Source: a virus
Lineage: Duplodnaviria > Caudoviricetes
IMG/VR virus record: IMGVR_UViG_3300028805_000057
Span: 32,001-96,000 of that record
Reading direction: 5' to 3' (one strand)
Length of the DNA: 64,000 nt
Below the pieces are notes generated by a model. The model was not told the DNA's origin and made no database searches. It saw only the letters and a list, made by a program, of their open reading frames with translations. The translations under genes were made by a program, and so were the position numbers. Position 1 is the first letter of the stretch; each line of letters starts with the position of its first letter. This document shows positions 3,245 to 31,060 of the stretch, one piece after another.

Positions 3245-3289
3245 TATTTGCAGAATGCCTCTCAAACGCTCTATTTTGTTCCACTACTC

Positions 3290-3413
3290 AGTACCTTCGT
3301 AGACGCTCAGATTTGCCCGTAAAGGCCTGTTTGGTATTTCTAGGTAGATTTATACTACTTTATACCCAAAAAGCCGAATATGGGCATTTTGGTGCGTTAC
3401 AGAGGTATTCTAG
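3290..3413. repeat. Dispersed ~125-bp imperfect palindrome, copy 1 (extra partial arm at 3252-3278)
   Basis: Core TGCCCGTAAAGGCCTGTTTGG; right arm GGGCATTTTGGTGCGTTACAGAGGTATT. Confidence 0.9.
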
Positions 3414-3424
3414 AGTTTGAAATT

Positions 3425-3449
3425 CGCGAAAATATTTAATTGTATATTG
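3425..3449 (+). promoter_or_regulatory. Phage promoter motif CGCGAAAA-N10-TATATT
   Basis: Member of ~10-copy intergenic motif family with fixed spacing. Confidence 0.7.
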
Positions 3450-3476
3450 GGACGGTATAGTCCTGTATATTTTTTA

Positions 3477-3560
3477 GTTTGAACGAAGTAAGAACTACAG
3501 TCTGTGATTGGGTTTGAACAAAGTGAGAACTACAGTCTGTGATTGGGTTTGAACAGAGTG
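3477..3560 (+). repeat. Tandem 35-bp direct repeat (2 copies plus a partial)
   Basis: AGAACTACAGTCTGTGATTGGGTTTGAACA(A/G)AGTG at 3491 and 3526; partial GTTTGAACGAAGTA at 3477. Confidence 0.9.
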
Positions 3561-3585
3561 ATAAATGCGAAAGGAGTTAAATAAA

Positions 3586-4431
3586 ATGAATTTACAAAAG
3601 ATATTTGAGGACGGTTTTAAAGATATGAAAAAGAACAGTCCTCTAATTCTTACGGGTCTGGCATGCTTTGGTGTTGCAGCAACTTCCGTAGTATCAATCT
3701 TTGCAGGAAAGAAGTTAGCTAAGAAAGAAGAAGTAGTAAAGCAAAAGATTGAAGAAAAGAAAGCAAAAGGAGAAGTAGTAACAAAGAAAGATAGTATAGT
3801 ATTATATGTAAGAGAGTACTTCCCTCCGATTGCTCCAGTTATTCTTAGTGTGGGTTTAACAAGTGCATGTGCAATATTCTCATATAAAGAAAGTGCAAAG
3901 AGATTATTGGCAGCAACAACTATAGCAACATTAGCTTCTTCAGAAAGAGATATGTATAAGAAACTTGCTGAGAAATTAATGGGCGAAAAAGAATTAGAAA
4001 GAGAAAAGTTAAAGAAACAAATCGAAGAAAATCCTATGCCCAAACAGATCGAAGACAAGGTTAAGAAAGAAGGAGCTAATAATGTAGACCAAGTTTATAA
4101 TACAACACAATCTTGGTATGAACCTACAACGAATCAGTATATTGCATGTACAGAAAGTGAAATAGTTAAAGCATTTGAAGAGATTTCTTCAAGAGTTAAA
4201 TTTGGTGAATCATTTGTATCATTTGATGAATTCTTATGGGCATTGCCGGTACAGGTAAAGCATCCAAAGATTGCAGAAACATTTGGTTGGCCTTATGAAA
4301 GATGTAAACGTGGTATTGTATATGATTTAAGTGATGGAGTAAAAGCAGAAAATGGATTATTTGTTGGTAAGATAGGTTATCAAGCATATGTAGAAACAAC
4401 AGAATATCCTATTGACACAATACATAGTTAA
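3586..4431 (+). CDS. DUF6353-like phage membrane-associated protein
   Basis: KKNSPLILTGLACFGVAATSV N-terminal helix; YFPPIAP..VGLTSACAIFS; C-terminal FGW; SD AAGGAG. Confidence 0.7.
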   Translation: MNLQKIFEDGFKDMKKNSPLILTGLACFGVAATSVVSIFAGKKLAKKEEVVKQKIEEKKAKGEVVTKKDSIVLYVREYFPPIAPVILSVGLTSACAIFSYKESAKRLLAATTIATLASSERDMYKKLAEKLMGEKELEREKLKKQIEENPMPKQIEDKVKKEGANNVDQVYNTTQSWYEPTTNQYIACTESEIVKAFEEISSRVKFGESFVSFDEFLWALPVQVKHPKIAETFGWPYERCKRGIVYDLSDGVKAENGLFVGKIGYQAYVETTEYPIDTIHS

Positions 4432-4503
4432 GCTGTCTCAAGGAACTTGTCTGGTCAGTAAAATGGCTGGATGAGTTCCTTTACATTTTATGAAAGGAAA
4501 CAT

Positions 4504-4680
4504 ATGTATATAGCTTTAATTATATTAATGATATTAACTGGATTTATATGGTTTACAGAACATTGTGTAGAACAGCAAAGAATGTATGAATTTTGTAGAG
4601 AACATCGTAAAGGTGTATGTAAAGATATTTTAATTGATAAGAAATGTAATAGGTGTCCATATTTAAATAAAGGAGAATGA
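4504..4680 (+). CDS. Small membrane protein with Cys cluster
   Basis: SD GAAAGGA; TM helix then C..C..CxxC; similar layout to 2214-2432. Confidence 0.55.
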   Translation: MYIALIILMILTGFIWFTEHCVEQQRMYEFCREHRKGVCKDILIDKKCNRCPYLNKGE

Positions 4681-4862
4681 TTATGAGTTCACCTGATGAA
4701 TTAATGACAAAAGAATGGAAATATGATTTTAGAAATAGTTGGGAACAAGCTACAGCTGATTTAAGATATATATCTTATATGAAAAAGATTGATTTAAAGA
4801 AAATTGGATTTACTAATGAATTATTAAATAATACATATATTAAAGTGAAAAGGAGAAAATAA
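4677..4862 (+). CDS. Hypothetical protein
   Basis: SD AAGGAG; ATGA overlap. Confidence 0.55.
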   Translation: MIMSSPDELMTKEWKYDFRNSWEQATADLRYISYMKKIDLKKIGFTNELLNNTYIKVKRRK

Positions 4863-4866
4863 TAAG

Positions 4867-5232
4867 ATGAGAAGTTGGAGTTTTACATTTGAGAATGAGG
4901 AAGATGCAAAGAAGGCTTTTGTTGGATTTCAGAAGATGTTTAAGGATTGTGAAGATTTTGAAAAGAGAAAAATATTCTACTGTTCAATGAAAGATAAAGA
5001 TAAAACATATAAAATATTTTTAGGAATTGAGGATACTGTTGCAGGTGCATTTACAATCACAACAATGAATGCATTTGATAAGTGTCTTAAGAATGTATTT
5101 ACAGTAACTAAAGCAGATTGTAAAGATATTAAGGTTGAGTTCCCGGAAAATTGCAAGATATCAAGTTGGTGGGAAGCAGATAAAGTTCCTAATAAATCAA
5201 AAGAGGAAACAAAAGATGGCAAAACAAATTGA
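4867..5232 (+). CDS. Hypothetical protein
   Basis: SD AAGGAG; 121-aa ORF. Confidence 0.65.
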   Translation: MRSWSFTFENEEDAKKAFVGFQKMFKDCEDFEKRKIFYCSMKDKDKTYKIFLGIEDTVAGAFTITTMNAFDKCLKNVFTVTKADCKDIKVEFPENCKISSWWEADKVPNKSKEETKDGKTN

Positions 5233-5434
5233 TTTTATATTTTTAGAAGAAAACGATCCTGCATATCCATACAGTATGGAAGCTTATGAATATGAGAAAC
5301 CATCTGGCGGATGCAGGACAAGAAATAAAGAAGACTTAAAAGCAATGTACCAGCTTTGGAAAGAAACATATGGTACAATTAATTTAAAGTATATTTTTAA
5401 AAAGAATGAAGAGGTATTGAAAGGAGTAGATTAA
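5216..5434 (+). CDS. Hypothetical protein
   Basis: SD GAGG, ATG 5216. Confidence 0.55.
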   Translation: MAKQIDFIFLEENDPAYPYSMEAYEYEKPSGGCRTRNKEDLKAMYQLWKETYGTINLKYIFKKNEEVLKGVD

Positions 5435-5436
5435 TT

Positions 5437-5742
5437 ATGGTACAGCGTGATACAGAGTATTTAACAAGAGAAGATGACAGGGAATTAAATGAATTCCTTG
5501 AAATTATGCACAATAGTCAAATGATATTTGAAAATTGTGTATTTAGTCTTTGCACAAATAAGCAGTTTAGAAATTGTACATTTACAAATTGTATCTTTGA
5601 TCATGTAACAAAGGAAACATATTTTACAAATTGCACATTTGATGCTCCTACATTTTATGCAGGATTCCATGGCAAACTTGATAACTGTAATATTACAAAA
5701 TATTCAGGAGTAATTGGAGAGTTAAAGGAGAGAATGCCATGA
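5437..5742 (+). CDS. Pentapeptide-repeat-like protein
   Basis: FENCVF, FRNCTFTNCIF, FTNCTF repeats; SD AAGGAG. Confidence 0.6.
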   Translation: MVQRDTEYLTREDDRELNEFLEIMHNSQMIFENCVFSLCTNKQFRNCTFTNCIFDHVTKETYFTNCTFDAPTFYAGFHGKLDNCNITKYSGVIGELKERMP

Positions 5743-5942
5743 GTCAACACTTAGTGGAATTTGAAAATTGGTGCAAAACCTGTAAATTTGGTAAGCAGGA
5801 AGAAGAAGATCATCCTTGTTATTTATGTCTTGATGAACCGGTAAATATTGATAGTAAGAAACCGGTTTATTATGTGGAAGGTGAAACTAAGAAGAAAGAG
5901 CGTTATGGCAGAAAGGAGAAAACTGATGCAAGGCGCCGTTGA
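5739..5942 (+). CDS. Small Cys-rich protein
   Basis: WCKTCK...PCYLCLDEPVN; SD AAGGAG. Confidence 0.65.
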   Translation: MSQHLVEFENWCKTCKFGKQEEEDHPCYLCLDEPVNIDSKKPVYYVEGETKKKERYGRKEKTDARRR

Positions 5943-6132
5943 AAATTTTTATAAAGCATTCGATGAACTTAGAAGAAGGCATGTAAATGTTGAATTTAAG
6001 TTAAATTACAAGACATATTGGATTATGGAATTACTTGTAGATAATAATGTAATCTTTAATCTCAAAGGAAATGATACAAGTATATTATTTGATAATGCAG
6101 CAAGTAAATTATTAAACTTCCTGAGAAAGTAA
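5926..6132 (+). CDS. Hypothetical protein
   Basis: SD AAAGGAG before ATG 5926. Confidence 0.55.
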   Translation: MQGAVENFYKAFDELRRRHVNVEFKLNYKTYWIMELLVDNNVIFNLKGNDTSILFDNAASKLLNFLRK

Positions 6133-6153
6133 AGATATTTAGGAGGTAAAATA

Positions 6154-6405
6154 ATGAGTTTAAGTCAAGCATTAGTATGTGCAAGTGTATTTATTGCAGG
6201 TATCATTATTGGTATTGTAATACATTCAATTCATGTAAATAAAAGAGTGCCTTGGGCAGGTAATGTAGTAATTGATACAAGAAATCCTAATGGTGATACA
6301 ATTAGTATCGAATCTCCAAAGAATATTACAAAATGGGATAAGTACAAAGAAATAAAATTCACTGTAATAGCTTTGTGGGGAGATAAGAAAAGAAAGGATA
6401 AGTAA
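6154..6405 (+). CDS. Small membrane protein
   Basis: SD AGGAGG; N-terminal TM helix. Confidence 0.65.
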   Translation: MSLSQALVCASVFIAGIIIGIVIHSIHVNKRVPWAGNVVIDTRNPNGDTISIESPKNITKWDKYKEIKFTVIALWGDKKRKDK

Positions 6406-6406
6406 T

Positions 6407-6799
6407 ATGCCAAGGAAGCATTATAGTCCTATTAATGTTCCAATGAATAAAACAACAGATCCTGAAGGAAGATTAGTAATCGATTCAAGAGGTGTACAAA
6501 CAACATTTGATCCAGATGGAACATTATCATTCAATGTAAATAATGGAATATTAACTTGGAATTCAGGAGATATAATACATCTGAATTTTACAAGTGATGA
6601 TTTTTCAATAATGTATGATGCTGAGAGTAATTTATTAACTTTAACAGCAGGTGATAAGAATATTTATTATCAGCTAGATACATTAAAAGAATTAATACAA
6701 GAAAAAGGTTATACCATTGAAGAAATGGAAAAAATATTGGAGGAAAAGAATGAAGCAGAACATGACGAAACTCTTAGTGATAGTGGACATGCAGAATGA
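6407..6799 (+). CDS. Hypothetical protein
   Basis: SD AAAGGA; 130 aa. Confidence 0.6.
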   Translation: MPRKHYSPINVPMNKTTDPEGRLVIDSRGVQTTFDPDGTLSFNVNNGILTWNSGDIIHLNFTSDDFSIMYDAESNLLTLTAGDKNIYYQLDTLKELIQEKGYTIEEMEKILEEKNEAEHDETLSDSGHAE

Positions 6800-7298
6800 T
6801 TTTGTAACTGGTTCGCTTGCAAATCCCGATGCTGAAAAAATAGTTCCTGGTATTGTAGAACTGATTAAGAATTGGGATGGAAATATTGCAATTACAATGG
6901 ATGTACATGCTTCTGATTATCTAAATACACAAGAAGGAAAAAGATTACCGATAGAGCATTGCATTTGTGGTACTAAAGGATATAAACTTGTAAAAGATAT
7001 TCAAGATGCTTTAGAAGCTTTTGATGAATTACCAGAAACAAATCTCGATTCATTTTACAAAGAAGATACTTTTGGTAGTGATCGTTTAGGTTGGCACGTT
7101 GAAGATTTTAAATATGATGAAATCTACTTCTGTGGAACTTGTACAGATATTTGTGTAATAAGTAATGCAATAATCTGTAAATCATTTGCTCCAGAAACAA
7201 GAATTATCGTATTAAAAGACTTATGTGCTGGAACTACACCAGAGAATCATGAGAATGCACTTAAAGCTATGAAACAATGTCAGATTGATATTGAATGA
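6750..7298 (+). CDS. pncA: Nicotinamidase / isochorismatase-family cysteine hydrolase
   Basis: VIVDMQNDF (catalytic Asp), D.H and HC metal ligands, FYK, GTCTDICV (catalytic Cys). Confidence 0.85.
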   Translation: MKQNMTKLLVIVDMQNDFVTGSLANPDAEKIVPGIVELIKNWDGNIAITMDVHASDYLNTQEGKRLPIEHCICGTKGYKLVKDIQDALEAFDELPETNLDSFYKEDTFGSDRLGWHVEDFKYDEIYFCGTCTDICVISNAIICKSFAPETRIIVLKDLCAGTTPENHENALKAMKQCQIDIE

Positions 7299-7377
7299 CA
7301 TCGAATGAAAAACCATTCACAAATCCGAATGGAAATTCATTTTGTAAACAAAATAAAATTAAAAAGGAGACGAAAAA

Positions 7378-7725
7378 ATGGCAGCAAAGAAGAAAGTAAC
7401 TGAAGTAGTTGAAGAAGTAAAGAATAATGTTGAGGAATTTGATGAGAAGGGCATTGTTGAAGAAGTAAAAGATGATATTGCTCTTGTTGACGAGAATGAT
7501 GAAACAAAAGAGGAGACACCTGGCGAGACATTAAGTAATTCAATTGATAAGCTTGTAAATGCTGTAGCTGATAAGATTAATAAAGATGTAAATACACCTA
7601 AGCCTACACCTGAGAAGAAACCTTGGAAGTTAGGTTTCTGGGGTTATCTTGGTTTAGCAGTAGTTGTAAAGGGTGCTGTTGAGATTGCAAGAGCTATAGC
7701 AGATTCAAAGAAACCTAGACGCTAA
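7378..7725 (+). CDS. Acidic protein with C-terminal TM helix
   Basis: SD AAGGAG; LGFWGYLGLAVVVKGAV. Confidence 0.7.
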   Translation: MAAKKKVTEVVEEVKNNVEEFDEKGIVEEVKDDIALVDENDETKEETPGETLSNSIDKLVNAVADKINKDVNTPKPTPEKKPWKLGFWGYLGLAVVVKGAVEIARAIADSKKPRR

Positions 7726-7744
7726 AAAATTTAATCGCTTTATG
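7720..7744 (+). promoter_or_regulatory. Phage promoter motif CGCTAAAA-N10-CTTTAT
   Basis: Motif family member. Confidence 0.6.
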
Positions 7745-7782
7745 AGCGGAATAGGGCTCGTACATTTTCGAAAGGAGAAAAA

Positions 7783-8331
7783 ATGGGCAAAAAGAAGGAA
7801 TATGTCGAGACCCCTGAAAATGGGGATGAGTTTGAGTACTATGAGGAAAATGAAGAGACCGAAGAGACAGCAGTAGAAGAACCTAAGAAGGTTGAGAAGA
7901 ATGATAAGAAACTTGAAGTCGAGTTGTTAAAGGCTCAGAATGAAGCAAAGAAGCTGGAACTTGAAACTAAGAAATTAGAATTTGAAACTAAGAAGCTTGA
8001 GAATGATCAGAAGAATGCTGAGGCTAATAGAGATCTTGAACTGAAGAGAATCAATAATGAGAAAGAGATTGAGGATAAGAAAGTTAAGATTGAAGAAGGC
8101 AAAGCAGAAGCTGAAAAGAAAGCATCTAAGAGAGATCTAATAGCAAAGTGGGGAACAGCAGGCATCGGTCTGATTGGAACTGGCTTGGGTATCTATTTCT
8201 CAAGAAAGGCATTCTTAGAGTCAATGTTGTTTGAAGAAAGCGGTTCATTCAGGACTTCAGTAAGTAAGAAGTCTCAGGCAATGACAGACAATGTTGCCAA
8301 GAAATTGGAGAATGTAAGAAAAGATATTTGA
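7783..8331 (+). CDS. Coiled-coil protein with C-terminal TM helix
   Basis: KKLELET heptad repeats; WGTAGIGLIGTGLGIYF; own promoter and terminator. Confidence 0.75.
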   Translation: MGKKKEYVETPENGDEFEYYEENEETEETAVEEPKKVEKNDKKLEVELLKAQNEAKKLELETKKLEFETKKLENDQKNAEANRDLELKRINNEKEIEDKKVKIEEGKAEAEKKASKRDLIAKWGTAGIGLIGTGLGIYFSRKAFLESMLFEESGSFRTSVSKKSQAMTDNVAKKLENVRKDI

Positions 8332-8354
8332 AATTCATAATTTGAATTGAGAAT

Positions 8355-8388
8355 GGGGATCAGAGAAATCTGGTCCTCTAATCTTTTT
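8355..8388 (+). terminator. Intrinsic terminator (identical to copy at 14804)
   Basis: GGGGATCAGA-GAAA-TCTGGTCCTC then T-run; second hairpin at 8391-8430. Confidence 0.8.
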
Positions 8389-8540
8389 GTAGGGACTGAC
8401 ATTGAATAATGGTGGTTCCTCTAATCTTTTTATAGTAAAAACTATAAACTTAAAATTATAAAAAATACTAAAAAGGTTACTACTTTGCAAAATGCAAACT
8501 AGGTACCATTTTTAAAAATACTAAAAAGGAGACCACAATT

Positions 8541-8825
8541 ATGACAAAGCAGGAAGCATCAAAGAAGGCACTTAATGTTATGGAAAACCACATTATCAAT
8601 GTTCACAAGAAAGACAGAAATGTTACAGACTTTGTTACAACTGTTACTACAATGGTAAGTATGGTTGGTGTTGGTATGATTATTGAAATGTTCCTTCATG
8701 GCAGACATTGGAATAAGGAAATGGATAAGGCTAAGGGTGAACTTGAGGGCATATTAAAGGAAATGGAGCCTGAAGAATCTGAAGCTGAAGTTAAAGAGGA
8801 GGCCGTAAATGAGCAGGCAGAGTAA
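8541..8825 (+). CDS. Small membrane protein
   Basis: SD AAGGAG; central hydrophobic helix. Confidence 0.65.
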   Translation: MTKQEASKKALNVMENHIINVHKKDRNVTDFVTTVTTMVSMVGVGMIIEMFLHGRHWNKEMDKAKGELEGILKEMEPEESEAEVKEEAVNEQAE

Positions 8826-9000
8826 TTATGCAAAAAAGAATTTCTTTAATGCTTCTATGCAAAGAGCACAGTTACTTGCAAAGAAGAAAAAAGATATTCA
8901 ATCTATAAAGAATGGCAATTTTGTAGAACCAGATCCTAAGAATGTTGTACTTGAAACTGAAGATTCCGTTGAGCAGGATTTGGAGGTTGTTGATGAGTGA
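8809..9000 (+). CDS. Hypothetical protein
   Basis: SD GAGGAGG. Confidence 0.6.
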   Translation: MSRQSNYAKKNFFNASMQRAQLLAKKKKDIQSIKNGNFVEPDPKNVVLETEDSVEQDLEVVDE

Positions 9001-9418
9001 TATTGCTTTAATGTTGGAAGAAATCAGAAATAAACTTGATGAACTTGATCATAAGGTTGATATAATACATCAGAAAGTCGATCGATTAAAGATATTTCCT
9101 CAAATGTCTGTTTGGAAAGATTATGATATTGTCGATAAACCAACAGAAAATTTTCCACGTCAAATCTCAGAAGATGAATATGAAGAAGATGGTAGATATG
9201 CTAAAATAGAAATAATATATTATGAAGTAGATGGTGTATTTGCTACTTTTGATGGCAAGTTAGTTGAATATTTGAATGAAGAATATTTTGGTATTGACAA
9301 TTTAAATTTATTCAATGAATATTGTAATATTTGTTTAAGAGATGAAACAATACATGTGGACTATCATATGGTTTATGAGGGATGTGCTAGTTATTTTGTA
9401 GAACATAAAGGAGAATAA
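8993..9418 (+). CDS. Hypothetical protein, paralog of the C-terminal domain of 22505-23281
   Basis: Shared FP..I..D.YE..G.Y.K.E.IYYE..G.FAT.D...EEY.G.DNLNLF...LRDE..H.DYH. Confidence 0.75.
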   Translation: MSDIALMLEEIRNKLDELDHKVDIIHQKVDRLKIFPQMSVWKDYDIVDKPTENFPRQISEDEYEEDGRYAKIEIIYYEVDGVFATFDGKLVEYLNEEYFGIDNLNLFNEYCNICLRDETIHVDYHMVYEGCASYFVEHKGE

Positions 9419-9427
9419 AACACACAC

Positions 9428-9571
9428 ATGAACAGAAATGGTAAGGCAATAGAAAAGTTCTTAGCTTTAAGAGAAGTTAAGAGAGATGCGGCAGCAAATG
9501 CAGCCGGTAAGAAGAAAGAAAATGTTGTATTTAGTTCAGTACCTGCAAGAAGAAGACAGAGAAAAGGTTAA
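9428..9571 (+). CDS. Small basic protein (47 aa)
   Basis: MNRNGKAIEKFLALREVKR...RRRQRKG; fills the gap after 9418. Confidence 0.45.
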   Translation: MNRNGKAIEKFLALREVKRDAAANAAGKKKENVVFSSVPARRRQRKG

Positions 9572-9667
9572 TTATGAATATCACTTTGCAAAAATTCAAA
9601 CTGAGACCTAAAAATTCGCTAAATTCTTTACAGCACACTTATCAAAGATAACTGATGCTCGGAGAAC

Positions 9668-9693
9668 CGCGAAAATCTCCATTCATATTATAG
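9668..9693 (+). promoter_or_regulatory. Phage promoter motif CGCGAAAA-N10-TATTAT
   Basis: Motif family member. Confidence 0.7.
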
Positions 9694-9736
9694 CACGGAA
9701 TGAGTAGTGTTGTACGAAAATAATGGAGGTAGAAAA

Positions 9737-9967
9737 ATGATTATTTTGTTGGTGTTACTCTTCTTGGCAATAGCAATGATTGCGATAACATTCGTATCAT
9801 TTGGCATATGGGTAGTAATCCCGGCCTTATGTATATTCGGAATTTATAAAATCATAAAGCTGTGTTTCAAGAAGAAGGAGAAACCTGACCTTGTAATTAT
9901 GGACAGGAAGTTATTTGAAAGTCAATATGAAAAGAAACCGGAACAAACAACTGTAGCTCAGCAGTAA
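9737..9967 (+). CDS. Small membrane protein
   Basis: SD GGAGGT; long hydrophobic N-terminus; cassette gene. Confidence 0.7.
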   Translation: MIILLVLLFLAIAMIAITFVSFGIWVVIPALCIFGIYKIIKLCFKKKEKPDLVIMDRKLFESQYEKKPEQTTVAQQ

Positions 9968-9986
9968 TAATTGAGCAAACTTTAAA

Positions 9987-10023
9987 GGGGATTGAACAAA
10001 TGTTCAGTCCTCTAAGTTTTTTA
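9987..10023 (+). terminator. Intrinsic terminator (identical to copy at 11399)
   Basis: GGGGATTGAACA-AA-TGTTCAGTCCTC then T-run. Confidence 0.8.
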
Positions 10024-10077
10024 TAACGAACACTTCGATTTTTAAGTGTAATTAAAATATTTAGGAGGAATATAAAA

Positions 10078-10545
10078 ATGGAATGTATTGATTGCGCAAA
10101 GAATGCAAATTGTACAAATGAAAAAACTGAAGTATGTAATGATTTTAAAGCTAAAAAGAAGTCTAAACTTAAAAAGATATTAACTATTGCAGGTATTGCA
10201 GCAGGCACAGGTATTGTTACAGGTGTTTTAGCATATCTCAAGGGTAGACAGGATGGTAATGAAAAAGGTTTTGAGAAAGCATTAACCAGTCCTGAAGTAA
10301 AATTAATCACAAATACTAAAGCATATGATGCTATGAGTGATTATAATGAAAAAGTACTTTATATGGTAGAAAATGGCAACTTTGCAACAGAATTCACAAA
10401 TGATGATACTGGAGAAAAGAAATATATGACATATACAGTATCAAATGAAGCTCCTGATTGGTGGGAGAATGATGATACACAAAGATTTGATTTAAAAGAA
10501 ATAGTAGTAAACGATCTCGAACCAAAAGAAGATGCAAGCCTATGA
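10078..10545 (+). CDS. Membrane protein with N-terminal Cys motif
   Basis: SD AGGAGG; CIDC..C..C; TM ILTIAGIAAGTGIVTGVLAYL. Confidence 0.7.
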   Translation: MECIDCAKNANCTNEKTEVCNDFKAKKKSKLKKILTIAGIAAGTGIVTGVLAYLKGRQDGNEKGFEKALTSPEVKLITNTKAYDAMSDYNEKVLYMVENGNFATEFTNDDTGEKKYMTYTVSNEAPDWWENDDTQRFDLKEIVVNDLEPKEDASL

Positions 10546-11139: not shown

Positions 11140-11158
11140 AATATTGTTCTCCTTAATG
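11134..11158 (+). promoter_or_regulatory. Phage promoter motif CGCTAAAA-N10-CTTAAT
   Basis: Motif family member. Confidence 0.65.
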
Positions 11159-11196
11159 CAGCGATAAATGTATATTAATTGATTGGAGGTTAAAAA

Positions 11197-11398: not shown

Positions 11399-11433
11399 GG
11401 GGATTGAACAAATGTTCAGTCCTCTAATTCTTT
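11399..11433 (+). terminator. Intrinsic terminator
   Basis: 29 nt identical to 9987 copy. Confidence 0.75.
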
Positions 11434-12566: not shown

Positions 12567-12884
12567 ATGACAGAGAACGAGAATGTAGTAGATGACATTA
12601 TTAATGACGATGTTAATGATACCCCGGAGACAGAGAAGAGAACAGTTGATAAGATTCTTGACTGGGCAAAGGATCATAAGAAGGAATTGATTGTTGGTTC
12701 GGTGGCAGGAGCTATTGGAACAATTTTAGGAGCTAAAGCACTTAGCAAGACTGAAATTAAGGAAGTAGAGAAGCTCCCGGATCCGACTATCATGGACAAA
12801 TATGATCGTGTCCCGGTTGAGGAGCATTCTTATATTGATTATAAGTATGTTCTCAAGCCTGAATATAGGGAAGATGATGATTGA
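12567..12884 (+). CDS. Single-TM protein
   Basis: SD AAGGAGG; WAKDHKKELIVGSVAGAIGTILGAKAL. Confidence 0.75.
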   Translation: MTENENVVDDIINDDVNDTPETEKRTVDKILDWAKDHKKELIVGSVAGAIGTILGAKALSKTEIKEVEKLPDPTIMDKYDRVPVEEHSYIDYKYVLKPEYREDDD

Positions 12885-14802: not shown

Positions 14803-14838
14803 GGGGGATCAGAGAAATCTGGTCCTCTAAATTTTTTA
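14803..14838 (+). terminator. Intrinsic terminator
   Basis: Identical hairpin to 8355. Confidence 0.8.
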
Positions 14839-19795: not shown

Positions 19796-19810
19796 ATGAA
19801 CTGTAATACC

Positions 19811-19941
19811 TTCTACAATACCTCTGTAACGCACAGATTTGCCCGTAAAGGCCTGTTTGGGTATTTTATAGTATATTTATAGGGTAAAACATGAAATAGG
19901 CCTAAATGGGCATTCTGGTGCGTCAGAAGGGCATTCTAGAA
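19811..19941. repeat. Dispersed palindrome copy 2
   Basis: AATACCTCTGTAACGCACAGATTTGCCCGTAAAGGCCTGTTTGG ... AAATAGGCCTAAATGGGCATTCTGGTGCGT. Confidence 0.9.
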
Positions 19942-19952
19942 AAGGAGATAAT

Positions 19953-23281: not shown

Positions 23282-23313
23282 TTTAAAGATATTTGATAAA
23301 AAGGAGACGAAAT

Positions 23314-23706: not shown

Positions 23707-23712
23707 ATGTGA

Positions 23713-23738
23713 CGCGAAAATAATTTATATTATAAAAT
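23713..23738 (+). promoter_or_regulatory. Phage promoter motif CGCGAAAA-N10-TATAAA
   Basis: Motif family member upstream of the replication genes. Confidence 0.6.
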
Positions 23739-23852
23739 GGAAGGCCAGGAGTTGGTCTTTTAGTTTGTCCAAAATATGACAAAGAAAGGAGAGAAAAATG
23801 GTATCAATTAAAGATATTATCCTTGTAAATTTTTTAGACAAGGAGGCAAATT

Positions 23853-24419
23853 ATGGATGAAAATGTTTTGATAAAATTATATTATGATTGGTTAGTTGAT
23901 CAGATAGATTATGATTATAAAGCTAGTATGTATGAAGATTTATTAGAGTATTTATTTAATATGGATTTTGTATGGTTGGATACAGTTCCATTAGATGAAA
24001 ATAGAGCAATTGACGGGTTAGAATTAAGAACAAATTATGCTAAAATTATAGGTGAAAATGATGGCGATTTATTGTTAAATTTATTGAATAGAAAACGATG
24101 TTCTATGTTAGAAATGTTTGTAGCTTTTTCTGAAAGATTGACGGGTCTTTCTGACTTAAATGGTGATATGAATGCAAGGGAAAAATTCTTTTGGATGTTT
24201 ATAGATAATTTAGGTTTAAGTTGGGCTACAAAGTATGATTTTGATATAGATATTGTGGGTGAAATTTTAAATGATTTTTTGTCTGGAACAGTACATGGAA
24301 GAGATCCAAAAGGTAATGAAAATCCTCCTGTTTTATTTCCTTGTAGAGAAGTTTATAATAATATGAATTATGATCTATTTATGCAAGCTAATTTATACTT
24401 AAAATCGTACCTTTTGTGA
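23853..24419 (+). CDS. Conserved phage protein preceding the replicase
   Basis: Y.DWL, DENRA.DGLELR, CSMLEM, FWMFIDNLGL. Confidence 0.75.
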   Translation: MDENVLIKLYYDWLVDQIDYDYKASMYEDLLEYLFNMDFVWLDTVPLDENRAIDGLELRTNYAKIIGENDGDLLLNLLNRKRCSMLEMFVAFSERLTGLSDLNGDMNAREKFFWMFIDNLGLSWATKYDFDIDIVGEILNDFLSGTVHGRDPKGNENPPVLFPCREVYNNMNYDLFMQANLYLKSYLL

Positions 24420-24616
24420 GGCATTTTTGGGCGATTTTGGTAGTATTTTTGATGGAATTTTTGTCTTATTTTTGTAGGTAAAAATAACATTAAAAAAATC
24501 TTTATGAAAAAGACACTTTTTTTAAAAAAGTTTTAAAAGTATGCTCTAGCACGATGCCAGAGTAAAAAAATGCCAAAAAATGTAACTTTTTCGCGAAAGG
24601 AGGAATATAAAATTGT

Positions 24617-27600
24617 ATGGATTTTTTATCAGTTAGAGCAAAAAGTAATACAAAAAATAGACATACAATTACACTTGAACCACATATCAATTTGGATGAC
24701 TCAGAAGACATCATAATTAAGGGTGGTGGAGTATATGCAATTTATGATGAAAATAAGAAAATTTGGGTCACTGATATGGACAAAATCATGAAGGTTTTAA
24801 ACAATGATTGGGTTAAGAAATATAATGCAAAAGTTAAGGAAATTGAAGAAGCAAATAAACGTCTTCCAGCAGCTGACAGAAAGTTCATTACAAATGATAT
24901 AGAATTTGATAATTATACAAGTGATTCAGGGTATTTAGAGAAGTTTTTACAGTTCACAAAGAAGGTTGAAAAGTATCATGAAAATATTGATTTAAATCCT
25001 CATGTTATCTTCAAAAATATGGATGTAAAAAAAGAAGATTATTCAACTGGAAAATTGCCATATTCTTTAGAAGAAGGAAGTACTGAATCATGGGATCAAA
25101 TGGTTGGTTATTTGTATGAACCTGAAGAGAAAGAAAAGATAGAATGGATGATTGGAAGTATTGTATCTGGTTATAGTACAAAGATACAAAAGTTCTTTGT
25201 ATTTTATGGTGATCCAGGTTCAGGTAAAGGTACAATAATGAAAATCATTGAATCTATGTTTAAACCTTATTATGCACCATTCATTTCAAAGAGAGTTGTA
25301 AGTAATAGTAACTTTCCTCTTGAATGTTTAGCTATGAATCCCTTAGTTGCAATCGATGAAGATGGAGATTTATCTCAAGTACAAGACAATACAAGATTAA
25401 ATAGTATTGTGTCTCATGAAACAATTCCTGTAGAAACAAAATTTAAAAATCCTTATCCTGTAAAATTTAAAACTTTATTAATTATGTCAAGTAATGAGCC
25501 AGTACAAATGACAGGACCACAATCAGGTTTCACAAGAAGACTTATAGATATTAATCCTGTTGGCGGTGAACCAATTCCTACAGATGAATATGATATTCTT
25601 TTAAATCGTATAACTAAATATGAACGTGGAGCTATAGCATATAAGTGTTTAGAAACATTTAATAGATTAGGTAAAACATATTTTAATGGTTATGTTGCTG
25701 AAGATATGTTCTCTCGTACAAATCAGTTTTTTCAATTTCTTGAAGAAAATGTAGACATATTTAGAAAACAAAATTATACATATCTCGATCAGGTTTGGAG
25801 AATGTATAAGATATTTGTAGAAGATAATGGTATTAAACATTTTCATAGGAAAGCTGAAATACGTGAGCAACTTAAAAAATATTTTGAAGAATATTATTAT
25901 GAAACTCGTATAGGTGATGATAATCATAATCATTATCATGTATATAAAGGTTTTATAGTAAAGAAATTTGATGATGTAATTAAGAAAGCAACTAAAAAGA
26001 AAAAACCTAGAAAGAATGTTATAATTAATAAGGAATATGCTGAAGAAAATAATATTGATGTTGTAACTGTAGACGATGATGTTGTACATTGGTTGAAATT
26101 CGATAAGAATTATGGTGAGTGCAAGTCGAAGCTGGATATTTATCTTCAGAATGAGAAAGCACAATATGCTACAAAAGATGGAATCCCTGGAAAGAGATGG
26201 GATAATGTTGAAACTACTCTTAAAGATATTTCTACAAATAAGTTACATTATGTCCAAGCACCTGAACATCTCATAGTTATTGATTTTGATAAGAAAGACG
26301 AAACTGGTAATAAGAGCTATGAGTTAAATCTTAAGGAAGCAAATAAATTCCCTCGCACATATGCAGAATTAAGTAAGTCCGGTGCAGGTATTCATTTACA
26401 TTATATTTATGATGGCGACATAACAGAACTTAGTAGGATCTTTGGAGATGACATTGAAGTAAAGATATTTACTGGTAATGCTTCATTAAGGAGGCAACTA
26501 ACAAAATTTAATGACGAAGAAATTGCAACGATATCTGAAGGTTTGCCTCTAAAAGAAAAGAAGGGAGGTAAAATGTTAGATCAAGAAGTCTTGCAAACTG
26601 AACAAATGATGCGAAGAACTATTGTCAAATGTTTAAGGAATGAGATTCATGGTCATCACAAACCTAATATGGATTTCATCTACAAGATATTGACAGATGC
26701 ATATAATAATGGTATTCATTATGATGTTAGTGATATGTATAATGATATTTTGAATTATGCAATGGCTTCATCAAATAGTTCTGAATATTGTTTAGAGTTA
26801 GTAGCTAAGTTGCCTTTAAAGTCAGACGAACCTAGCGAGGCGGTAGAAAGTGAAGAAAAAGATTATAATAATGACTCAATTGTATTCTTTGATGTAGAAG
26901 TTTGGCCGAATTTATTTATATTTGGTTATAAGTTCTTAGGTGGAGAGAAACATATTTTATTAAATCCTAAACCCGAAGATGTTGAATATTTGTTAAAGCA
27001 TAAACTTGTTGGATTTAACTGCAGAAAGTATGATAATCATATTGTATATGCATTCTTACAAGGTTATACAAATGAACAATTATTTAAACTTTCACAAAAG
27101 ATAGTTAAAGCAAAGAAGGGTGAAAAGGATAATGGAATGTTTGGTGAGGCATATAATTTGTCTTACACCGATATTTATGATTTCTCAAAGAAGAAGCAGT
27201 CATTAAAGAAATGGGAAATTGAATTAGGCATTTATCATAAAGAGATGGATGCAAGTTGGGATGAACCACTTCCTGAAGAGTTATGGGATGCAGCAAAAGA
27301 GTATAACGGTTATGACTTAGACGCGACTGAGGCATTATGGTTATCTAAAGGCATTCAAGTTGACTTTACATCAAGAATGATATTAGCAGATATTGCAAAT
27401 GGTACACCCAATGATACAGATAACACATTGACTGAACGATTAATTCTTGGTCCTAACTATCAGGAAAGAAAAGCAGCAAAGAATTCATTCCATTATAGGA
27501 ATCTTGCAGAACCCGTTTATCATTTGGATGCAGATCAAGAGGAATTCTTAAAGGAAATCTTTCCGGAAATGATGGCTGAGACACATGGTGAAGCGCATAG

Positions 27601-28897
27601 TTTACTTCCTTACTTCCCTGGATATACATTTGATAAGTATGCAAAGACAAGTATATATAAGGGTGAAGAGATTGGTGAAGGTGGATTAGTTCGAGCAATT
27701 CCTGGTGTATATGGTTATTCCAAAACATTTGATGTAACATCGATGCATCCTCATAGTTTAGCTGCAGAGTATTATTTTGGTAAATATACAGAAGGATATT
27801 ATAATTTAGTTAGAGCAAGAATAGCAATTAAGCATGATAATATGGAGTTCTTAGGAAAGTTATTTGAAGGTAAGTTGTTAAAGTATTGTACCGATGATGA
27901 TCAGAAAAAGAAATTAAGTACTGCTTTAAAGACACCTATTAATGCAGTTTATGGTTTGACAGCTGCAGCATTTGAGAATAACTTAAGACATCCTGATAAT
28001 ATAGATAATATTGTTGCTAAGCGTGGTGCATTGTTTATGATGGATTTGAGAGATGCAGTATTAGCACAGGGTTATCAGATATTCCATATTAAGACAGATT
28101 CATTGAAAGTTATAAATCCTGATGAATACATTGAGAAGTTTATATTAGATTTTGGAAAGAGATATGGATATAGTTTTGAAGTAGAACACGAATTTGAAAA
28201 GATCTGTTTAGTTAATGATGCAGTTTATATAGCTAAGGTAACTGAAAATGATGCAGATTGGAAGAAGGAAGCTAAGAAAGCAGCTGAGAAGGGTGAACCT
28301 GAACCTACAAGATGGACAGCAACAGGTGCTCAGTTCCAGATTCCTTATGTATTTAAGACATTATTTAGTGGAGAAGGAATTACATTTGATGATGTATGTT
28401 TCATTAAGAATGTATCTAAGGGTTCAATTTATTTAGATTATAATGAGAACTTAGAAGATGTATCTCAATGGGAATTATTAAAAGAAATGAGATCACAAGT
28501 TAAGAATAATAAAGTTGCATTGTCTTGGGAAGAAGCTAAAGATAAAGGTTGGACTAAGAGAGAATGTGAGTTCTATAATCTTAACTTTGATATGAGCGAT
28601 GAAGAACTTGAATCTAAGATTAATGCAGGACATAGTAGACAGTTCATTGGTAAAGTTGGTAACTTCTGTCCTATATTAGCTGGTTATGGTGGAGCAGAGA
28701 TGTTATGTCTCAACGAACAGGGCAAGTATAATGCAGTGACTGGAACTAAAGATGTTCGTTGGTTAGAAGCATCTTATGTAAAGGAACATCATATGGAAGA
28801 TAAGATTGATTATGGTTATCTTGATAAGATGTGTCAGAGTGCAATAGAAGATATTAGTAAATATGATCCAAACTTCTTTGATAAGATTGAAAAATGA
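24617..28897 (+). CDS. Fused SF3 (D5-like) helicase / AEP primase / family-B DNA polymerase
   Basis: Walker A GDPGSGKGT, Walker B VAIDED, motif C SSN; primase IVIDFD and SKSGAGIHLHY; exonuclease FFDVE, VGFNCRKYD, YNGYD; polymerase DVTSMHP, KTPINAVYG, HIKTDS. Confidence 0.9.
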   Translation: MDFLSVRAKSNTKNRHTITLEPHINLDDSEDIIIKGGGVYAIYDENKKIWVTDMDKIMKVLNNDWVKKYNAKVKEIEEANKRLPAADRKFITNDIEFDNYTSDSGYLEKFLQFTKKVEKYHENIDLNPHVIFKNMDVKKEDYSTGKLPYSLEEGSTESWDQMVGYLYEPEEKEKIEWMIGSIVSGYSTKIQKFFVFYGDPGSGKGTIMKIIESMFKPYYAPFISKRVVSNSNFPLECLAMNPLVAIDEDGDLSQVQDNTRLNSIVSHETIPVETKFKNPYPVKFKTLLIMSSNEPVQMTGPQSGFTRRLIDINPVGGEPIPTDEYDILLNRITKYERGAIAYKCLETFNRLGKTYFNGYVAEDMFSRTNQFFQFLEENVDIFRKQNYTYLDQVWRMYKIFVEDNGIKHFHRKAEIREQLKKYFEEYYYETRIGDDNHNHYHVYKGFIVKKFDDVIKKATKKKKPRKNVIINKEYAEENNIDVVTVDDDVVHWLKFDKNYGECKSKLDIYLQNEKAQYATKDGIPGKRWDNVETTLKDISTNKLHYVQAPEHLIVIDFDKKDETGNKSYELNLKEANKFPRTYAELSKSGAGIHLHYIYDGDITELSRIFGDDIEVKIFTGNASLRRQLTKFNDEEIATISEGLPLKEKKGGKMLDQEVLQTEQMMRRTIVKCLRNEIHGHHKPNMDFIYKILTDAYNNGIHYDVSDMYNDILNYAMASSNSSEYCLELVAKLPLKSDEPSEAVESEEKDYNNDSIVFFDVEVWPNLFIFGYKFLGGEKHILLNPKPEDVEYLLKHKLVGFNCRKYDNHIVYAFLQGYTNEQLFKLSQKIVKAKKGEKDNGMFGEAYNLSYTDIYDFSKKKQSLKKWEIELGIYHKEMDASWDEPLPEELWDAAKEYNGYDLDATEALWLSKGIQVDFTSRMILADIANGTPNDTDNTLTERLILGPNYQERKAAKNSFHYRNLAEPVYHLDADQEEFLKEIFPEMMAETHGEAHSLLPYFPGYTFDKYAKTSIYKGEEIGEGGLVRAIPGVYGYSKTFDVTSMHPHSLAAEYYFGKYTEGYYNLVRARIAIKHDNMEFLGKLFEGKLLKYCTDDDQKKKLSTALKTPINAVYGLTAAAFENNLRHPDNIDNIVAKRGALFMMDLRDAVLAQGYQIFHIKTDSLKVINPDEYIEKFILDFGKRYGYSFEVEHEFEKICLVNDAVYIAKVTENDADWKKEAKKAAEKGEPEPTRWTATGAQFQIPYVFKTLFSGEGITFDDVCFIKNVSKGSIYLDYNENLEDVSQWELLKEMRSQVKNNKVALSWEEAKDKGWTKRECEFYNLNFDMSDEELESKINAGHSRQFIGKVGNFCPILAGYGGAEMLCLNEQGKYNAVTGTKDVRWLEASYVKEHHMEDKIDYGYLDKMCQSAIEDISKYDPNFFDKIEK

Positions 28898-28960
28898 TAT
28901 TTATAAAGTGAGGTGATGCTAAGTGCAGTATTATTCATGTGATAAACAAGTCACCTTCAA

Positions 28961-29091
28961 TGTAGAAATACCTCTGTAACGCACAGATTTGCCCGTAAAG
29001 GCCTGTTTGGGTATTTTATGGTATATTTTATATGGTAAAACATGAAATAGGCCTAAATGGGCAAAATATGAGCTTACAGAGGTATTTGACA
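28961..29091. repeat. Dispersed palindrome copy 3
   Basis: Left 50+ nt identical to copy 2; outer AAATACCTCTGTAA / TTACAGAGGTATTT. Confidence 0.9.
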
Positions 29092-29231
29092 AAAAAAATG
29101 ATATTTATGGGAACGATAACAAAATCGATATTGGGTGTTATCATATTATAGTTGTATTAGGGTGGGTTTAACTATAATGATATTTGAATACTCGAACAAG
29201 AAAACACGAACAAGAAAAGGAGAAAACAAAA

Positions 29232-29744
29232 ATGGCACAGAAGATTAACATCGCAGGCGCAAGAATTACATTTAAGAACTTTGCAGGAAGACCTACTGAT
29301 TGGAATAAGAAAGGTGGAGCAAGAGACTTTGCAGTTGTATTGGATACTTATGAGGATGTACAGGCTTTGATTGATATGGGATTCTCAGTAAAGTATTTCA
29401 AGAAGAAGGAAGAAACAGATCCTGATGTTCCGTTCTTAAAGGTTAAGGTTAACTTCAGATATAATGATGACGGTAGTGAATTACTTAGTCCTCATATCTA
29501 TATGATTAACAACAATAAGAAAGTTCTCATCACTCCTCAGACAGCTCAGATTCTTGATCAGGCAGATATTGCATATTGTGATATTGTTATCAGACCTTAT
29601 TATTATGAGGTTCAGGGTAAGGCAGGAGTCGCAGCTTATCTTGACAAGATGTATGTAAATATTGAGCAGGATGAATTTGAGAAGAAGTATGAGATGTATA
29701 ATGATCCTGAGGAAGAAGAAGCTGAAGAGATACCTTTTGAATAA
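29232..29744 (+). CDS. ssb: Single-stranded DNA-binding protein
   Basis: ARITFKNFAG...N..G.R.F; acidic tail ending EEIPFE; next to the replicase. Confidence 0.75.
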   Translation: MAQKINIAGARITFKNFAGRPTDWNKKGGARDFAVVLDTYEDVQALIDMGFSVKYFKKKEETDPDVPFLKVKVNFRYNDDGSELLSPHIYMINNNKKVLITPQTAQILDQADIAYCDIVIRPYYYEVQGKAGVAAYLDKMYVNIEQDEFEKKYEMYNDPEEEEAEEIPFE

Positions 29745-29933
29745 TCATTGGATAACTTGTTTAACCGATGCGTGATATAATTGCAGTTTGGCGAAGACAA
29801 AGTGTTTTGAATGATTAAAGATATTCTGTAATATTAGGTGACATGTACAAGCGAAAAGTGTAGTAGCTTAGAGGGTTTCAATTCCTAGTAAGTGATTAGA
29901 CTTACACAGAATAGCTTTAGAAAAATAATATTT

Positions 29934-30101
29934 GTTGGGATGGCGGAATAGACGCAGGAACAGCGGTAAAATAGTAGACGCGCACGGTGTGAAAATACTT
30001 TCACACACTACGTGTGAATGTCCTGAGATGGCTAGAGTTCCTATAAGCCATAAAACTGAAGCAGGATCTTTCATGTAAGGTGCAAATCCTTACTCCCAAT
30101 A
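29934..30101 (+). ncRNA. tRNA-like RNA with ~110-nt insertion replacing the anticodon arm
   Basis: Acceptor GTTGGGA/TCCCAAT, D-like TGGCGGAATAGACGC, T arm GTAAGG-TGCAAAT-CCTTAC. Confidence 0.6.
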
Positions 30102-30121
30102 ATATTTGTGGAGATTAACTT

Positions 30122-30373
30122 ATGGATAAAACAATTTATATAGTAATATTTTCAAGTACATATGAAGGAACATATCAGGAACAAAATGTTGCAGCATTTG
30201 ATACTGAAGATAAAGCTAATGCGTTTCGTGAAAAATATGAAAAGATAATATCTGAAACTAATGAGTTTAAATTATTAAAAGAAGATATTCCTTATTTAAA
30301 TGAAGATTATTCTGAAAAACTTATTGGTAGAACTAATTGTCATTATCTTTGTCAGGCAATGCATTTACTTTAA
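30122..30373 (+). CDS. Hypothetical protein
   Basis: SD GGAG. Confidence 0.6.
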   Translation: MDKTIYIVIFSSTYEGTYQEQNVAAFDTEDKANAFREKYEKIISETNEFKLLKEDIPYLNEDYSEKLIGRTNCHYLCQAMHLL

Positions 30374-30387
30374 GATATTTTAGATAT

Positions 30388-30514
30388 TCTAGAATACCTC
30401 TCAGACGCACCAGAATGCCCGTAAAGGCCTGTTTGGGGGTTTTATGATATATTTATAGGGTAAAACATGAAACCGGTCTAAATGAGGCTTCTGGTGCGTT
30501 ATAAGGGTATATGA
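30388..30514. repeat. Dispersed palindrome copy 4
   Basis: GAATACCTCTCAGACGCACCAGAATGCCCGTAAAGGCCTGTTTGG... Confidence 0.9.
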
Positions 30515-30529
30515 GGTTTAAAGATATTT

Positions 30530-30709
30530 ATGAAAATACAGAGAAAACTATTAACTATTGAACAAAAGCATGAAATCTGTACAAAATATTATGATAATTG
30601 TGAAGAATGTCCTTTATACTCAAAAGTGTTAAATCATTTCTGCATTTATAATTTAGATCAAGTACAATATGCTATTGACGATTATTTAAATGAAGAAATT
30701 GAGGTATAA
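30530..30709 (+). CDS. Small Cys-rich protein (59 aa)
   Basis: CTKYYDNCEECPL. Confidence 0.55.
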   Translation: MKIQRKLLTIEQKHEICTKYYDNCEECPLYSKVLNHFCIYNLDQVQYAIDDYLNEEIEV

Positions 30710-30711
30710 CT

Positions 30712-30882
30712 ATGTTAGCATATAATGTTCATGTAGATAATGATAATGAAGTTTATTGTATTGTTGCACCTACAGAAAAAGAAGCTATTGAATATGCTAT
30801 AGAACTTTATAAAAAAGATTATGGAACTGAAGTAACTGAAGAAGATTGTAAGGTTATTTGGAACTATGATGAAGATTATTAA
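30712..30882 (+). CDS. Hypothetical protein (56 aa)
   Basis: SD GAGGT. Confidence 0.55.
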   Translation: MLAYNVHVDNDNEVYCIVAPTEKEAIEYAIELYKKDYGTEVTEEDCKVIWNYDEDY

Positions 30883-30936
30883 TCAGGAAATGCCCTTGTA
30901 ACGATAACACTTCACAAGTGAACTGTAGTTCGTTAC

Positions 30937-31060
30937 TACAATACCTCTGTAACGCTCTATTTTGCCCGTAAAGGCCTGTTTGGTATAATTGTGGTATAAA
31001 TCTACCCTAAAATACTAAATGGGCCTAAATGAGGCTTTAAATGCGTTACAGAGGCATATT
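30937..31060. repeat. Dispersed palindrome copy 5
   Basis: AATACCTCTGTAACGC...TGCCCGTAAAGGCCTGTTTGG...GCGTTACAGAGGCAT. Confidence 0.9.

Follow-up and report, generated by a model that had tools for sequence, protein, structure and literature searches.

Long palindromes between the early genes of an uncultured phage lineage: candidate boundary cassettes with PeSL-like behaviour

What might be the role of five similar palindromes, each about 130 nt long, that lie dispersed between the genes of an uncultured phage? The stretch of DNA in which they were noticed, referred to here as the window, comprises 64,000 nucleotides and corresponds to bases 32001-96000 of a 147,894-bp IMG/VR phage record, IMGVR_UViG_3300028805_000057 (hereafter G000). 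This genome has a G+C content of 31.6%, with nearly all of its genes on the + strand and a uniformly positive GC skew, the + strand being the G-rich one; sample names suggest that the lineage comes from the rumen. The original prediction, which was made from the letters of the window, described the palindromes as intergenic and co-oriented, with an invariant 21-mer, and proposed that they could be mobile elements, recombination sites of the attC type, or binding sites for a phage protein. The analysis below leads to a different ordering of the possibilities. The elements appear to be a lineage-specific family of cis-acting boundary cassettes of the early/replication region, and the reading that we place first, although tentatively and at somewhat below an even chance, is that they are boundary elements of transcription units, which may work in the mRNA as long imperfect hairpins for processing or insulation and in the DNA as homology for the kind of cassette shuffling described for the promoter early stem-loops (PeSLs) of T4-type phages.

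That there are five copies, and that they are where they had been placed, is readily confirmed. The 21-mer TGCCCGTAAAGGCCTGTTTGG occurs in the window exactly five times, always on the + strand (at 3314, 19840, 28990, 30416, and 30963), with 0.00 occurrences expected, and the five copies constitute a single five-member repeat family that can be aligned over about 130 nt. All of them lie between open reading frames (ORFs; called mechanically) of the + strand, so that the description of the copies as intergenic and co-oriented is also borne out. As RNA, the five fold into long imperfect hairpins whose energies lie between -47.7 and -60.2 kcal/mol, with z-scores between -6.2 and -9.3 relative to shuffled sequences, and the family can form a hairpin of about 55 imperfect base pairs. 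The copies and the features attached to them are given below, with copy limits set by a covariance model built from the G000 copies. Orthologues are those in G002, a complete, syntenic relative of 135,705 bp with direct terminal repeats and a nucleotide identity to G000 of 65-95%.

Window 3254-3278, + strand: solo left-arm fragment 5' of copy 1, directly after the AATGATATTT motif.
Window 3281-3417 (genome 35281), + strand: copy 1; covariance model score 106 bits; fold -47.7 kcal/mol, z -6.2; orthologue in G002.
Window 19808-19943 (genome 51808), + strand: copy 2; covariance model score 145.8 bits; fold -52.5 kcal/mol; orthologue in G002.
Window 28893-28906, + strand: left copy of the direct repeat AAAATGATATTTAT that bounds the copy-3 insert; includes the PrimPol stop codon.
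Window 28958-29094 (genome 60958), + strand: copy 3, between the PrimPol-helicase and SSAP genes; fold -60.2 kcal/mol, z -9.3.
Window 29097-29110, + strand: right copy of the direct repeat AAAATGATATTTAT, immediately 3' of copy 3.
Window 30384-30519 (genome 62384), + strand: copy 4, with an AWGATATTT motif on either side.
Window 30889-30904, + strand: solo left-arm fragment 5' of copy 5.
Window 30931-31066 (genome 62931), + strand: copy 5, followed within about 20 nt by a ribosome-binding site (RBS) and ATG.

Position 3252, with which the array had been said to begin, proves to refer to the solo left-arm fragment, also delimited as 3254-3269, rather than to copy 1. The AATGATATTT motif before this fragment contains the upstream stop codon, an arrangement that is also found in contig L081, and copy 1 itself represents a subfamily with a degenerate proximal left arm. 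Within about 18 nt after copy 2 come the RBS and ATG of the downstream gene.

The family is not confined to the window. With the covariance model, G000 as a whole is found to have eight copies (the five in the window plus those at genome 256, 9227, and, in degenerate form, 137313), G002 has seven, and one more is present in a fragment. A scan of metagenome contigs with the common core pattern, followed by filtering with the model, adds 16 copies, although divergent or flipped copies are under-sampled by this procedure. Thus, the search of related phages that the original prediction had called for yields 31 distinct copies overall. The 21-mer is invariant among the five window copies but not in the three further copies of G000. 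Elsewhere the family was not seen, and it appears to be private to one lineage of uncultured phages: a blastn comparison of the element with 50,697 records of cultured phages gave no match, and among 185,579 prokaryote species genomes, with one representative each, the core pattern had eight chance matches, none of which was confirmed by the covariance model. A match to an Rfam family or to a known terminator, an outcome that the original prediction had set against itself, was not found in the window. In a search of the whole window with Rfam, only tRNA-Gln reaches the gathering threshold, the segment 28800-31200, which holds three copies, gives no match at E <= 1, and a terminator scan does not call the elements. 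In FP_oengus, a cultured relative, the next gene directly follows the PrimPol gene, and no comparable palindrome is among the inverted repeats listed in a repeat scan of its 18-kb locus. A search for farther relatives with PrimPol as a single protein returned G002 alone.

The position of the elements relative to genes is highly regular. In every contig, each copy lies between ORFs and has the orientation of the neighbouring genes. The element typically begins 0-70 nt after the stop codon of the preceding gene, and in about 10 of the 31 copies a Shine-Dalgarno (SD) sequence starts 5-12 nt after it, with RBS and ATG falling within about 20 nt. All copies are in the early/replication region; the 68-kb structural block of the genome has none. 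The neighbours of the window copies include two glycosyltransferases, a primase-polymerase (PrimPol)/helicase of 1426 aa, a single-strand annealing protein (SSAP)/single-stranded DNA (ssDNA)-binding protein, whose gene is situated between two copies (copy 3 upstream, copy 4 downstream), and an RNA ligase. Pfam and PHROGs give no DNA- or RNA-binding candidate among the small ORFs beside the elements, the sole hint being a sub-threshold match to an alpha C-terminal domain (alpha-CTD)/winged helix in an 85-aa ORF at window 31190-31447.

Comparison of gene content reveals that the elements coincide with the points at which genes have been gained, lost, or replaced. Four of the G000 copies have orthologues in G002, namely copies 1 and 2 and those at genome 256 and, in degenerate form, 137313. 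Copy 3 is absent from the orthologous site in G002, and also from L060, but present in L076, L085, L067, L068, and L070; in G000 it belongs to an insert that measures about 205 nt, of which 65 nt lie outside the element, and that is bounded by the direct repeat AAAATGATATTTAT. This repeat exemplifies a gene-junction motif that is very common, and the empty site in G002 has a single copy of it. The copy at genome 9227 is within a 2-kb gene block that is missing from G002. Between the SSAP gene (97% identical in the two phages) and the RNA-ligase gene (89% identical), not one gene is common to G000 and G002, and it is this stretch that holds copies 4 and 5 of G000, copy 3 being just upstream of SSAP, and two copies of G002. 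The RNA-ligase gene and the adjoining 93-aa gene (window 31469-32396) are themselves in reversed order in the two phages.

A wider view is provided by six further contigs, whose PrimPol and SSAP share only 44-65% identity with their G000 counterparts, apart from the SSAP of L060, at 77%. All six have an element in the spacer that follows SSAP, and five have one between PrimPol and SSAP, the exception being L060, which is like G002 in this respect. The elements of these contigs are 75-85% identical in nucleotides, compared with about 68% for the coding flanks. The ORF of 83 aa beside copy 4 (window 30122-30373) is 93% identical in L076, although identity is only about 52% for the PrimPol and SSAP that flank it there; this gene, which is absent from G002, and copy 4 together share 87% DNA identity with L076. 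Such a pattern points to a recent transfer of gene and element as one putative cassette. Consequently, the claim that the copies border blocks of accessory genes and are linked with gene shuffling holds in the comparisons of G000 both with G002 and with L076. Of the signs of insertion that had been proposed for inspection, the empty site is found, for copy 3 in G002, but the flanks of the 31 copies show no matching target-site duplications. The opposite outcome, positions that are fixed and have no link with gain or loss, is not what is seen: the positions beside SSAP are kept, yet genes come and go at the elements. Exchange by ordinary homologous recombination fits these observations better than the mechanisms of MITE/REP elements (miniature inverted-repeat transposable elements and repetitive extragenic palindromes) or of attC sites.

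In the model that we favour, the elements would be transcribed as part of polycistronic mRNA, and the resulting hairpin, with its kept internal loops (for example, the AA/AA loop beside the GGCC helix), would be recognised by a nuclease or other protein specific for double-stranded RNA, most simply the RNase III of the host, an enzyme that has a narrow specificity in Firmicutes. Cutting or binding would separate the cistrons, set the ends and half-lives of the mRNAs, and leave free the RBS that often begins so shortly after the hairpin. In the DNA, the roughly 130 bp that the copies share would be a substrate for the homologous recombination of the phage. Exchange in direct register would then swap or delete cassettes, as it does for the PeSLs of T4-type phages, and gene conversion in inverted register would give rise to arm modules and centres in both orientations and to left arms that often fit right arms from elsewhere in the family more closely than the one in their own copy. 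What is found at each site, in the sense orientation and between genes, is a predicted hairpin of at least 20 bp with internal loops, as is typical of RNase III sites, in a region predicted to be transcribed.

Several observations favour a role at the level of RNA. The sense RNA is more stable than the antisense RNA in 27 of the 31 copies. When each left arm is compared with the reverse complement of the right arm, the transition mismatches comprise 149 G.U and 97 A.C on the sense strand, a lean which corrects the earlier statement that the mismatches are not consistently G.U on one strand, although the copies are related and such counts are not independent trials. The inner helix, formed by AGGCCUGUUU and its partner, is 90% paired, and where the right arm varies, it mostly has R facing U and Y facing G. 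When folded as DNA, the two strands are similarly weak, at -15 to -31 kcal/mol.

There is, however, a substantial body of evidence that weighs against an RNA structure maintained by selection on its pairing. RNAalifold, given all 31 copies, yields no consensus long helix, in part because the register shifts between the GGGCA and GAGGC variants of the right arm. Because of this result, pairing and covariation were counted on a hand-drawn structure of 45 pairs, using 500 shuffles of the 3' letters among the copies, and an alignment-free test was added, in which left and right arms taken from different copies were folded as chimeras and compared with the native pairs in 5000 permutations. In the former, standard pairs amount to 72.1%, compared with 74.2 +/- 0.5% in the shuffles, and the covariation score is 0.102, compared with 0.127 +/- 0.007; for both measures, all 500 shuffles equal or exceed the observed value. 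In the latter, native arm pairs average -48.5 kcal/mol and chimeras -53.1 kcal/mol, with none of the 5000 permutations as weak as the native set, and the gap persists when five odd copies are left out (native, -51.1; chimeras, -53.8; p about 0.005). There is no compensatory evolution between the arms. In addition, the G.U excess is modest and arises from related copies, three of the 31 copies carry the core flipped (again a count among relatives rather than independent trials), the 14-nt centre is present both as GGTAGATTTATACC and as its reverse complement, and what is conserved is blocks of sequence about one turn apart rather than pairing, which suits a DNA-binding protein. Finally, no RNase III is encoded by G000 or G002, so that the phage itself does not supply the enzyme that the model would most simply use. 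Taken together, the strand asymmetry speaks for RNA and the absent covariation of the arms for DNA, and the earlier judgement that DNA is as plausible as RNA was a fair one. High conservation combined with negative covariation and freely oriented modules should also serve as a warning about strongly folding palindromes in general, given that a conserved palindrome of this kind need not be a structure maintained by compensatory evolution.

The behaviour of the arms is best appreciated by treating them as modules. It had been noticed that the left arm of copy 4 and the right arm of copy 2 are reverse complements of each other; this is correct, and the swapping of arm variants between left and right turns out to be general across the family. 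Certain left arms are almost fully complementary to right arms found in other copies, with which they would pair at -76 to -85 kcal/mol, compared with -35 to -51 kcal/mol within their own copy. Both arm modules and centre are found in either orientation; the centres of copy 5 and of the copy at genome 256, for example, run in opposite directions, and the idea that the centre is fixed in its orientation was accordingly rejected. The simplest account of such free orientation is gene conversion among the copies in direct and inverted register, perhaps accompanied by selection against perfect long palindromes.

Superimposed on the modules is a periodicity. Over the 31 copies, autocorrelation of the arm has its peaks at lags of 10, 11, and 21, with values of 0.43, 0.34, and 0.38, respectively, compared with 0.24 +/- 0.011 in shuffles; the arm can be written as about four units of 10-11 nt with a core close to AGAAYGCC; and the columns that are at least 90% conserved (AAT..C, ACGC.C, TGCC, and AGGCCTGTTT) are grouped into blocks that are spaced by about one helical turn and separated by variable modules. 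For the consensus arm, the combined lags give p = 0.0002, a value that applies to lags picked post hoc, and the best single lag, corrected over lags of 4-30, gives p of about 0.17. The interpretation of the arms as phased sub-repeats is therefore suggestive only, and a period of 10-11 nt would fit equally a protein on one face of B-form DNA, an A-form RNA helix (11 bp per turn), or the relic of a tandem duplication.

Of the other explanations, the one that deserves the most attention, although we consider it unlikely, is that the element works as duplex DNA, namely as a nucleoprotein site at which a phage protein binds inverted arrays of about four phased sub-repeats on either side of an AT-rich centre. 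Independent half-sites predict the very lack of arm covariation that troubles the RNA model, and free orientation of the modules, the periodic arms, and conserved blocks one turn apart are all congenial to it. Such a site could serve early operons as an operator or promoter cassette, possibly one used by a putative two-barrel RNA polymerase with helix-turn-helix (HTH) domains. A phage-encoded RNA polymerase is indeed postulated for the lineage (Koert et al. bioRxiv 10.1101/842583), many copies have a TRTGnTATAAT-like motif in the centre, and in most relatives one copy is directly 3' of the PrimPol gene. A symmetric site, however, does not explain the orientation bias (28 of the 31 related cores in the common orientation) or the G.U excess. 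Furthermore, no binding protein was identified. The original proposal of a binding site for a phage protein does draw some support from the sub-repeats. No enrichment of extended -10 motifs is seen on the + strand (18 on the +, 21 on the - strand) or in other spacers of the phage, the centre occurs in both orientations and has no -35, and a generic promoter scan shows no excess over shuffles; a host-type promoter in the centre is a candidate only. A variant in which the elements are several origins for the PrimPol-helicase, like oriL of herpes simplex virus (HSV) or ori/crr of P4, is less likely, and a cluster of three within 2 kb would be hard to understand if the elements were origins. The fuller proposition, that these are assembly sites on double-stranded DNA, with phased inverted arrays around a meltable centre, which act as early promoters or operators for the putative (possibly virion-borne) polymerase or else as PrimPol initiation sites, is judged to be distinctly doubtful. 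The mRNA hairpin is thus ranked first and the duplex-DNA site second, and the two are not exclusive: the latter explains the absent covariation and the phasing better, and the strand asymmetry and orientation bias worse.

The remaining explanations have less to recommend them. Selfish miniature mobile DNA of the MITE or REP type, spread by transposition and functionless for the phage, would be in keeping with the terminal inverted symmetry, the presence/absence differences between close relatives, and the partial arms, solo arms, and clustered copies. It is nevertheless improbable: there is no consistent target-site duplication, and the insert around copy 3 has 65 extra nt and a bounding motif that pre-exists at the empty site; all copies are intergenic and co-oriented, and phages whose proteins are about 50% identical have elements at the same intergenic sites. 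Moreover, neither complete phage has a match to Y1 (PF01797), rve (PF00665), DDE_Tnp_1 (PF01609), or TnpB-type (PF07282) transposases or to tyrosine (PF00589) or serine (PF00239) recombinases, which bears out for these families the earlier remark that no transposase or recombinase is visible. A MITE of the host was specifically rejected, given that none of the chance matches in prokaryote genomes was confirmed by the covariance model. A hairpin of the single-stranded + strand, exposed in the lagging-strand template or in an injected strand, could instead be a signal for priming or initiation by PrimPol, like the ssi and sso sites of plasmids and ssDNA phages; the strand specificity on the G-rich strand and the proximity of the PrimPol and SSAP/ssDNA-binding genes are what one would expect of it. 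We regard this as quite improbable, in view of the low and nearly equal folding energies of the two DNA strands, the lack of arm covariation, and the absence of copies from the 68-kb structural half, which needs lagging-strand priming equally. The least probable explanation is that of an intrinsic terminator, or else of an attC-like site used by an integrase of the integron type, even though hairpins at gene ends with cassette-like small ORFs between them bring both to mind. A T-run is found only near the copy at genome 256 and its G002 orthologue, a terminator scan that misses the elements finds a separate, canonical terminator family, and the tyrosine integrase on which attC depends is present in neither phage. 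MITE, attC, and terminator are hence not supported, because each fails a defining feature, and with them fall two of the roles that had originally been proposed.

The canonical intrinsic terminators of the window are on the + strand at 8355-8378, 9986-10013, 11399-11424, and 14803-14828. They have near-identical stems and conserved loops (e.g. AGAGAAATCT) followed by a T-run. The terminators of FP_oengus share the loop GAGAAATC, and this loop sequence seems to be conserved across the supercluster.

The closest likeness is to the PeSL cassettes of T4-type phages, for which shuffling and mini-circles have been reported (Arbiol et al. 2010, PMC2839356; see also Comeau et al. 2014, PMC4122927). 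Those are conserved intergenic motifs of about 100 bp with a stem-loop, which often extend as far as the SD and start codon of the following gene, cluster among small accessory early ORFs, coincide with insertions, deletions, and replacements, and involve no dedicated recombinase. The present family is alike in all of these respects, with a stem-loop ending at the SD or start codon in about 10 of its 31 copies and with copies that flank accessory ORFs at break points. It differs in that the phages are relatives of FP_oengus and 1706-type phages with their own RNA polymerase, the arms are about 55 nt long and apparently made of phased sub-repeats, compared with the short GC-rich stem of PeSLs, and there is no convincing sigma-70 promoter (no -35 and an ambiguous -10-like centre).

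The early mRNA of T7 is the classic case of cleavage by RNase III at hairpins. According to PMC4838370, the RNase III of B. subtilis is narrow in its specificity and cuts sites in SP82 early mRNA, and the T7/SP82 sites (Panganiban and Whiteley 1983, cited therein) resemble the present elements in being mutually similar hairpins with internal loops that lie between early genes, in sense orientation and without U-tracts, and in that they would rely on a host enzyme, there being no phage RNase III. The present elements are about twice as long as those sites, have no sequence similarity to them, and show no arm covariation; their cleavage is a prediction. Bacterial chromosomes harbour imperfect palindromes of about 100-150 bp, such as ERIC and Correia elements, which occur in transcribed spacers in both orientations; Correia elements have TA duplications, and their hairpins are cut by RNase III. 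The size class, the imperfect palindrome, the position in spacers, and hairpin-forming transcripts (for our family, predicted ones) are similar, whereas the present family is found in phages only, is co-oriented, and lacks target duplications. Arrays of short repeats about one helical turn apart, flanking an AT-rich centre, are known from HSV-1 oriL, P4 ori/crr, and R1 parC, in the last of which the repeats are direct. The arms of the present family, if their periodicity does reflect phased repeats, would be similar, but origins and centromeres are not expected to number eight per genome with three inside 2 kb, and the repeats are inverted, in contrast to parC.

Gene expression has hardly been studied in the large uncultured Firmicute phages of gut and rumen, and the elements offer a testable handle on how the 80-kb early region of such a phage is divided into expression units and on how small accessory genes are shuffled without a dedicated recombinase. 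The idea behind PeSLs, that regulatory repeats are portable homology for modular shuffling, would be extended from T4-type phages to an unrelated lineage. If the elements should instead be DNA sites, they would indicate what sequence a still uncharacterised phage protein or polymerase recognises, and the architecture of promoter or origin would be one that is not known from any phage.

A number of other repeated sequences accompany the palindromes. The most abundant is AAWGATATTT (in fuller form, about TTAAAGATATTT), which occurs 36 times in the window, always on the + strand, with 2.8 occurrences expected; the sites span positions 2324-35192, with none after 35192, and examples are at 3240, 15539, 28893, 29097, 30520, 32088, and 34541. 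For the looser form A[AT]GATATTT[ATG], 76 of 78 occurrences across G000 are on the + strand, as are 69 of 70 in G002. The motif often includes the upstream stop codon and stands 0-25 nt before the next RBS or directly before the ATG; it ends 3 nt before the tRNA-Gln gene, flanks many of the palindromes, and bounds the copy-3 insert, and no -35-like partner is seen. In FP_oengus, TGATATTT(T)ATG lies between the SD and the start codon of many genes. Judging from these positions, the motif is probably a gene-start signal of the lineage, either a promoter for the phage RNA polymerase with transcription starting inside the motif or a processing site.

Five of the 31 palindromes have another conserved motif (about ATGAGTCTACACGAA ... 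GTGGCTGG) immediately 3' of them: in G002 (L044) after the copies at 12672 and 17372, in L076, in L067, and at genome 137449-137500. Between copy 1 and the next gene are two tandem repeats of 35 nt that are 94% identical (window 3477-3546), just before which, at 3448-3465, is a small terminator-like hairpin; an inverted partial copy of the repeat is at 54319-54345. In the structural region, at window 52733-53856, there are two pairs of direct repeats, of 176 nt and 128 nt, which are about 75% identical and about 705-714 nt apart, an arrangement that suggests a tandem gene duplication.

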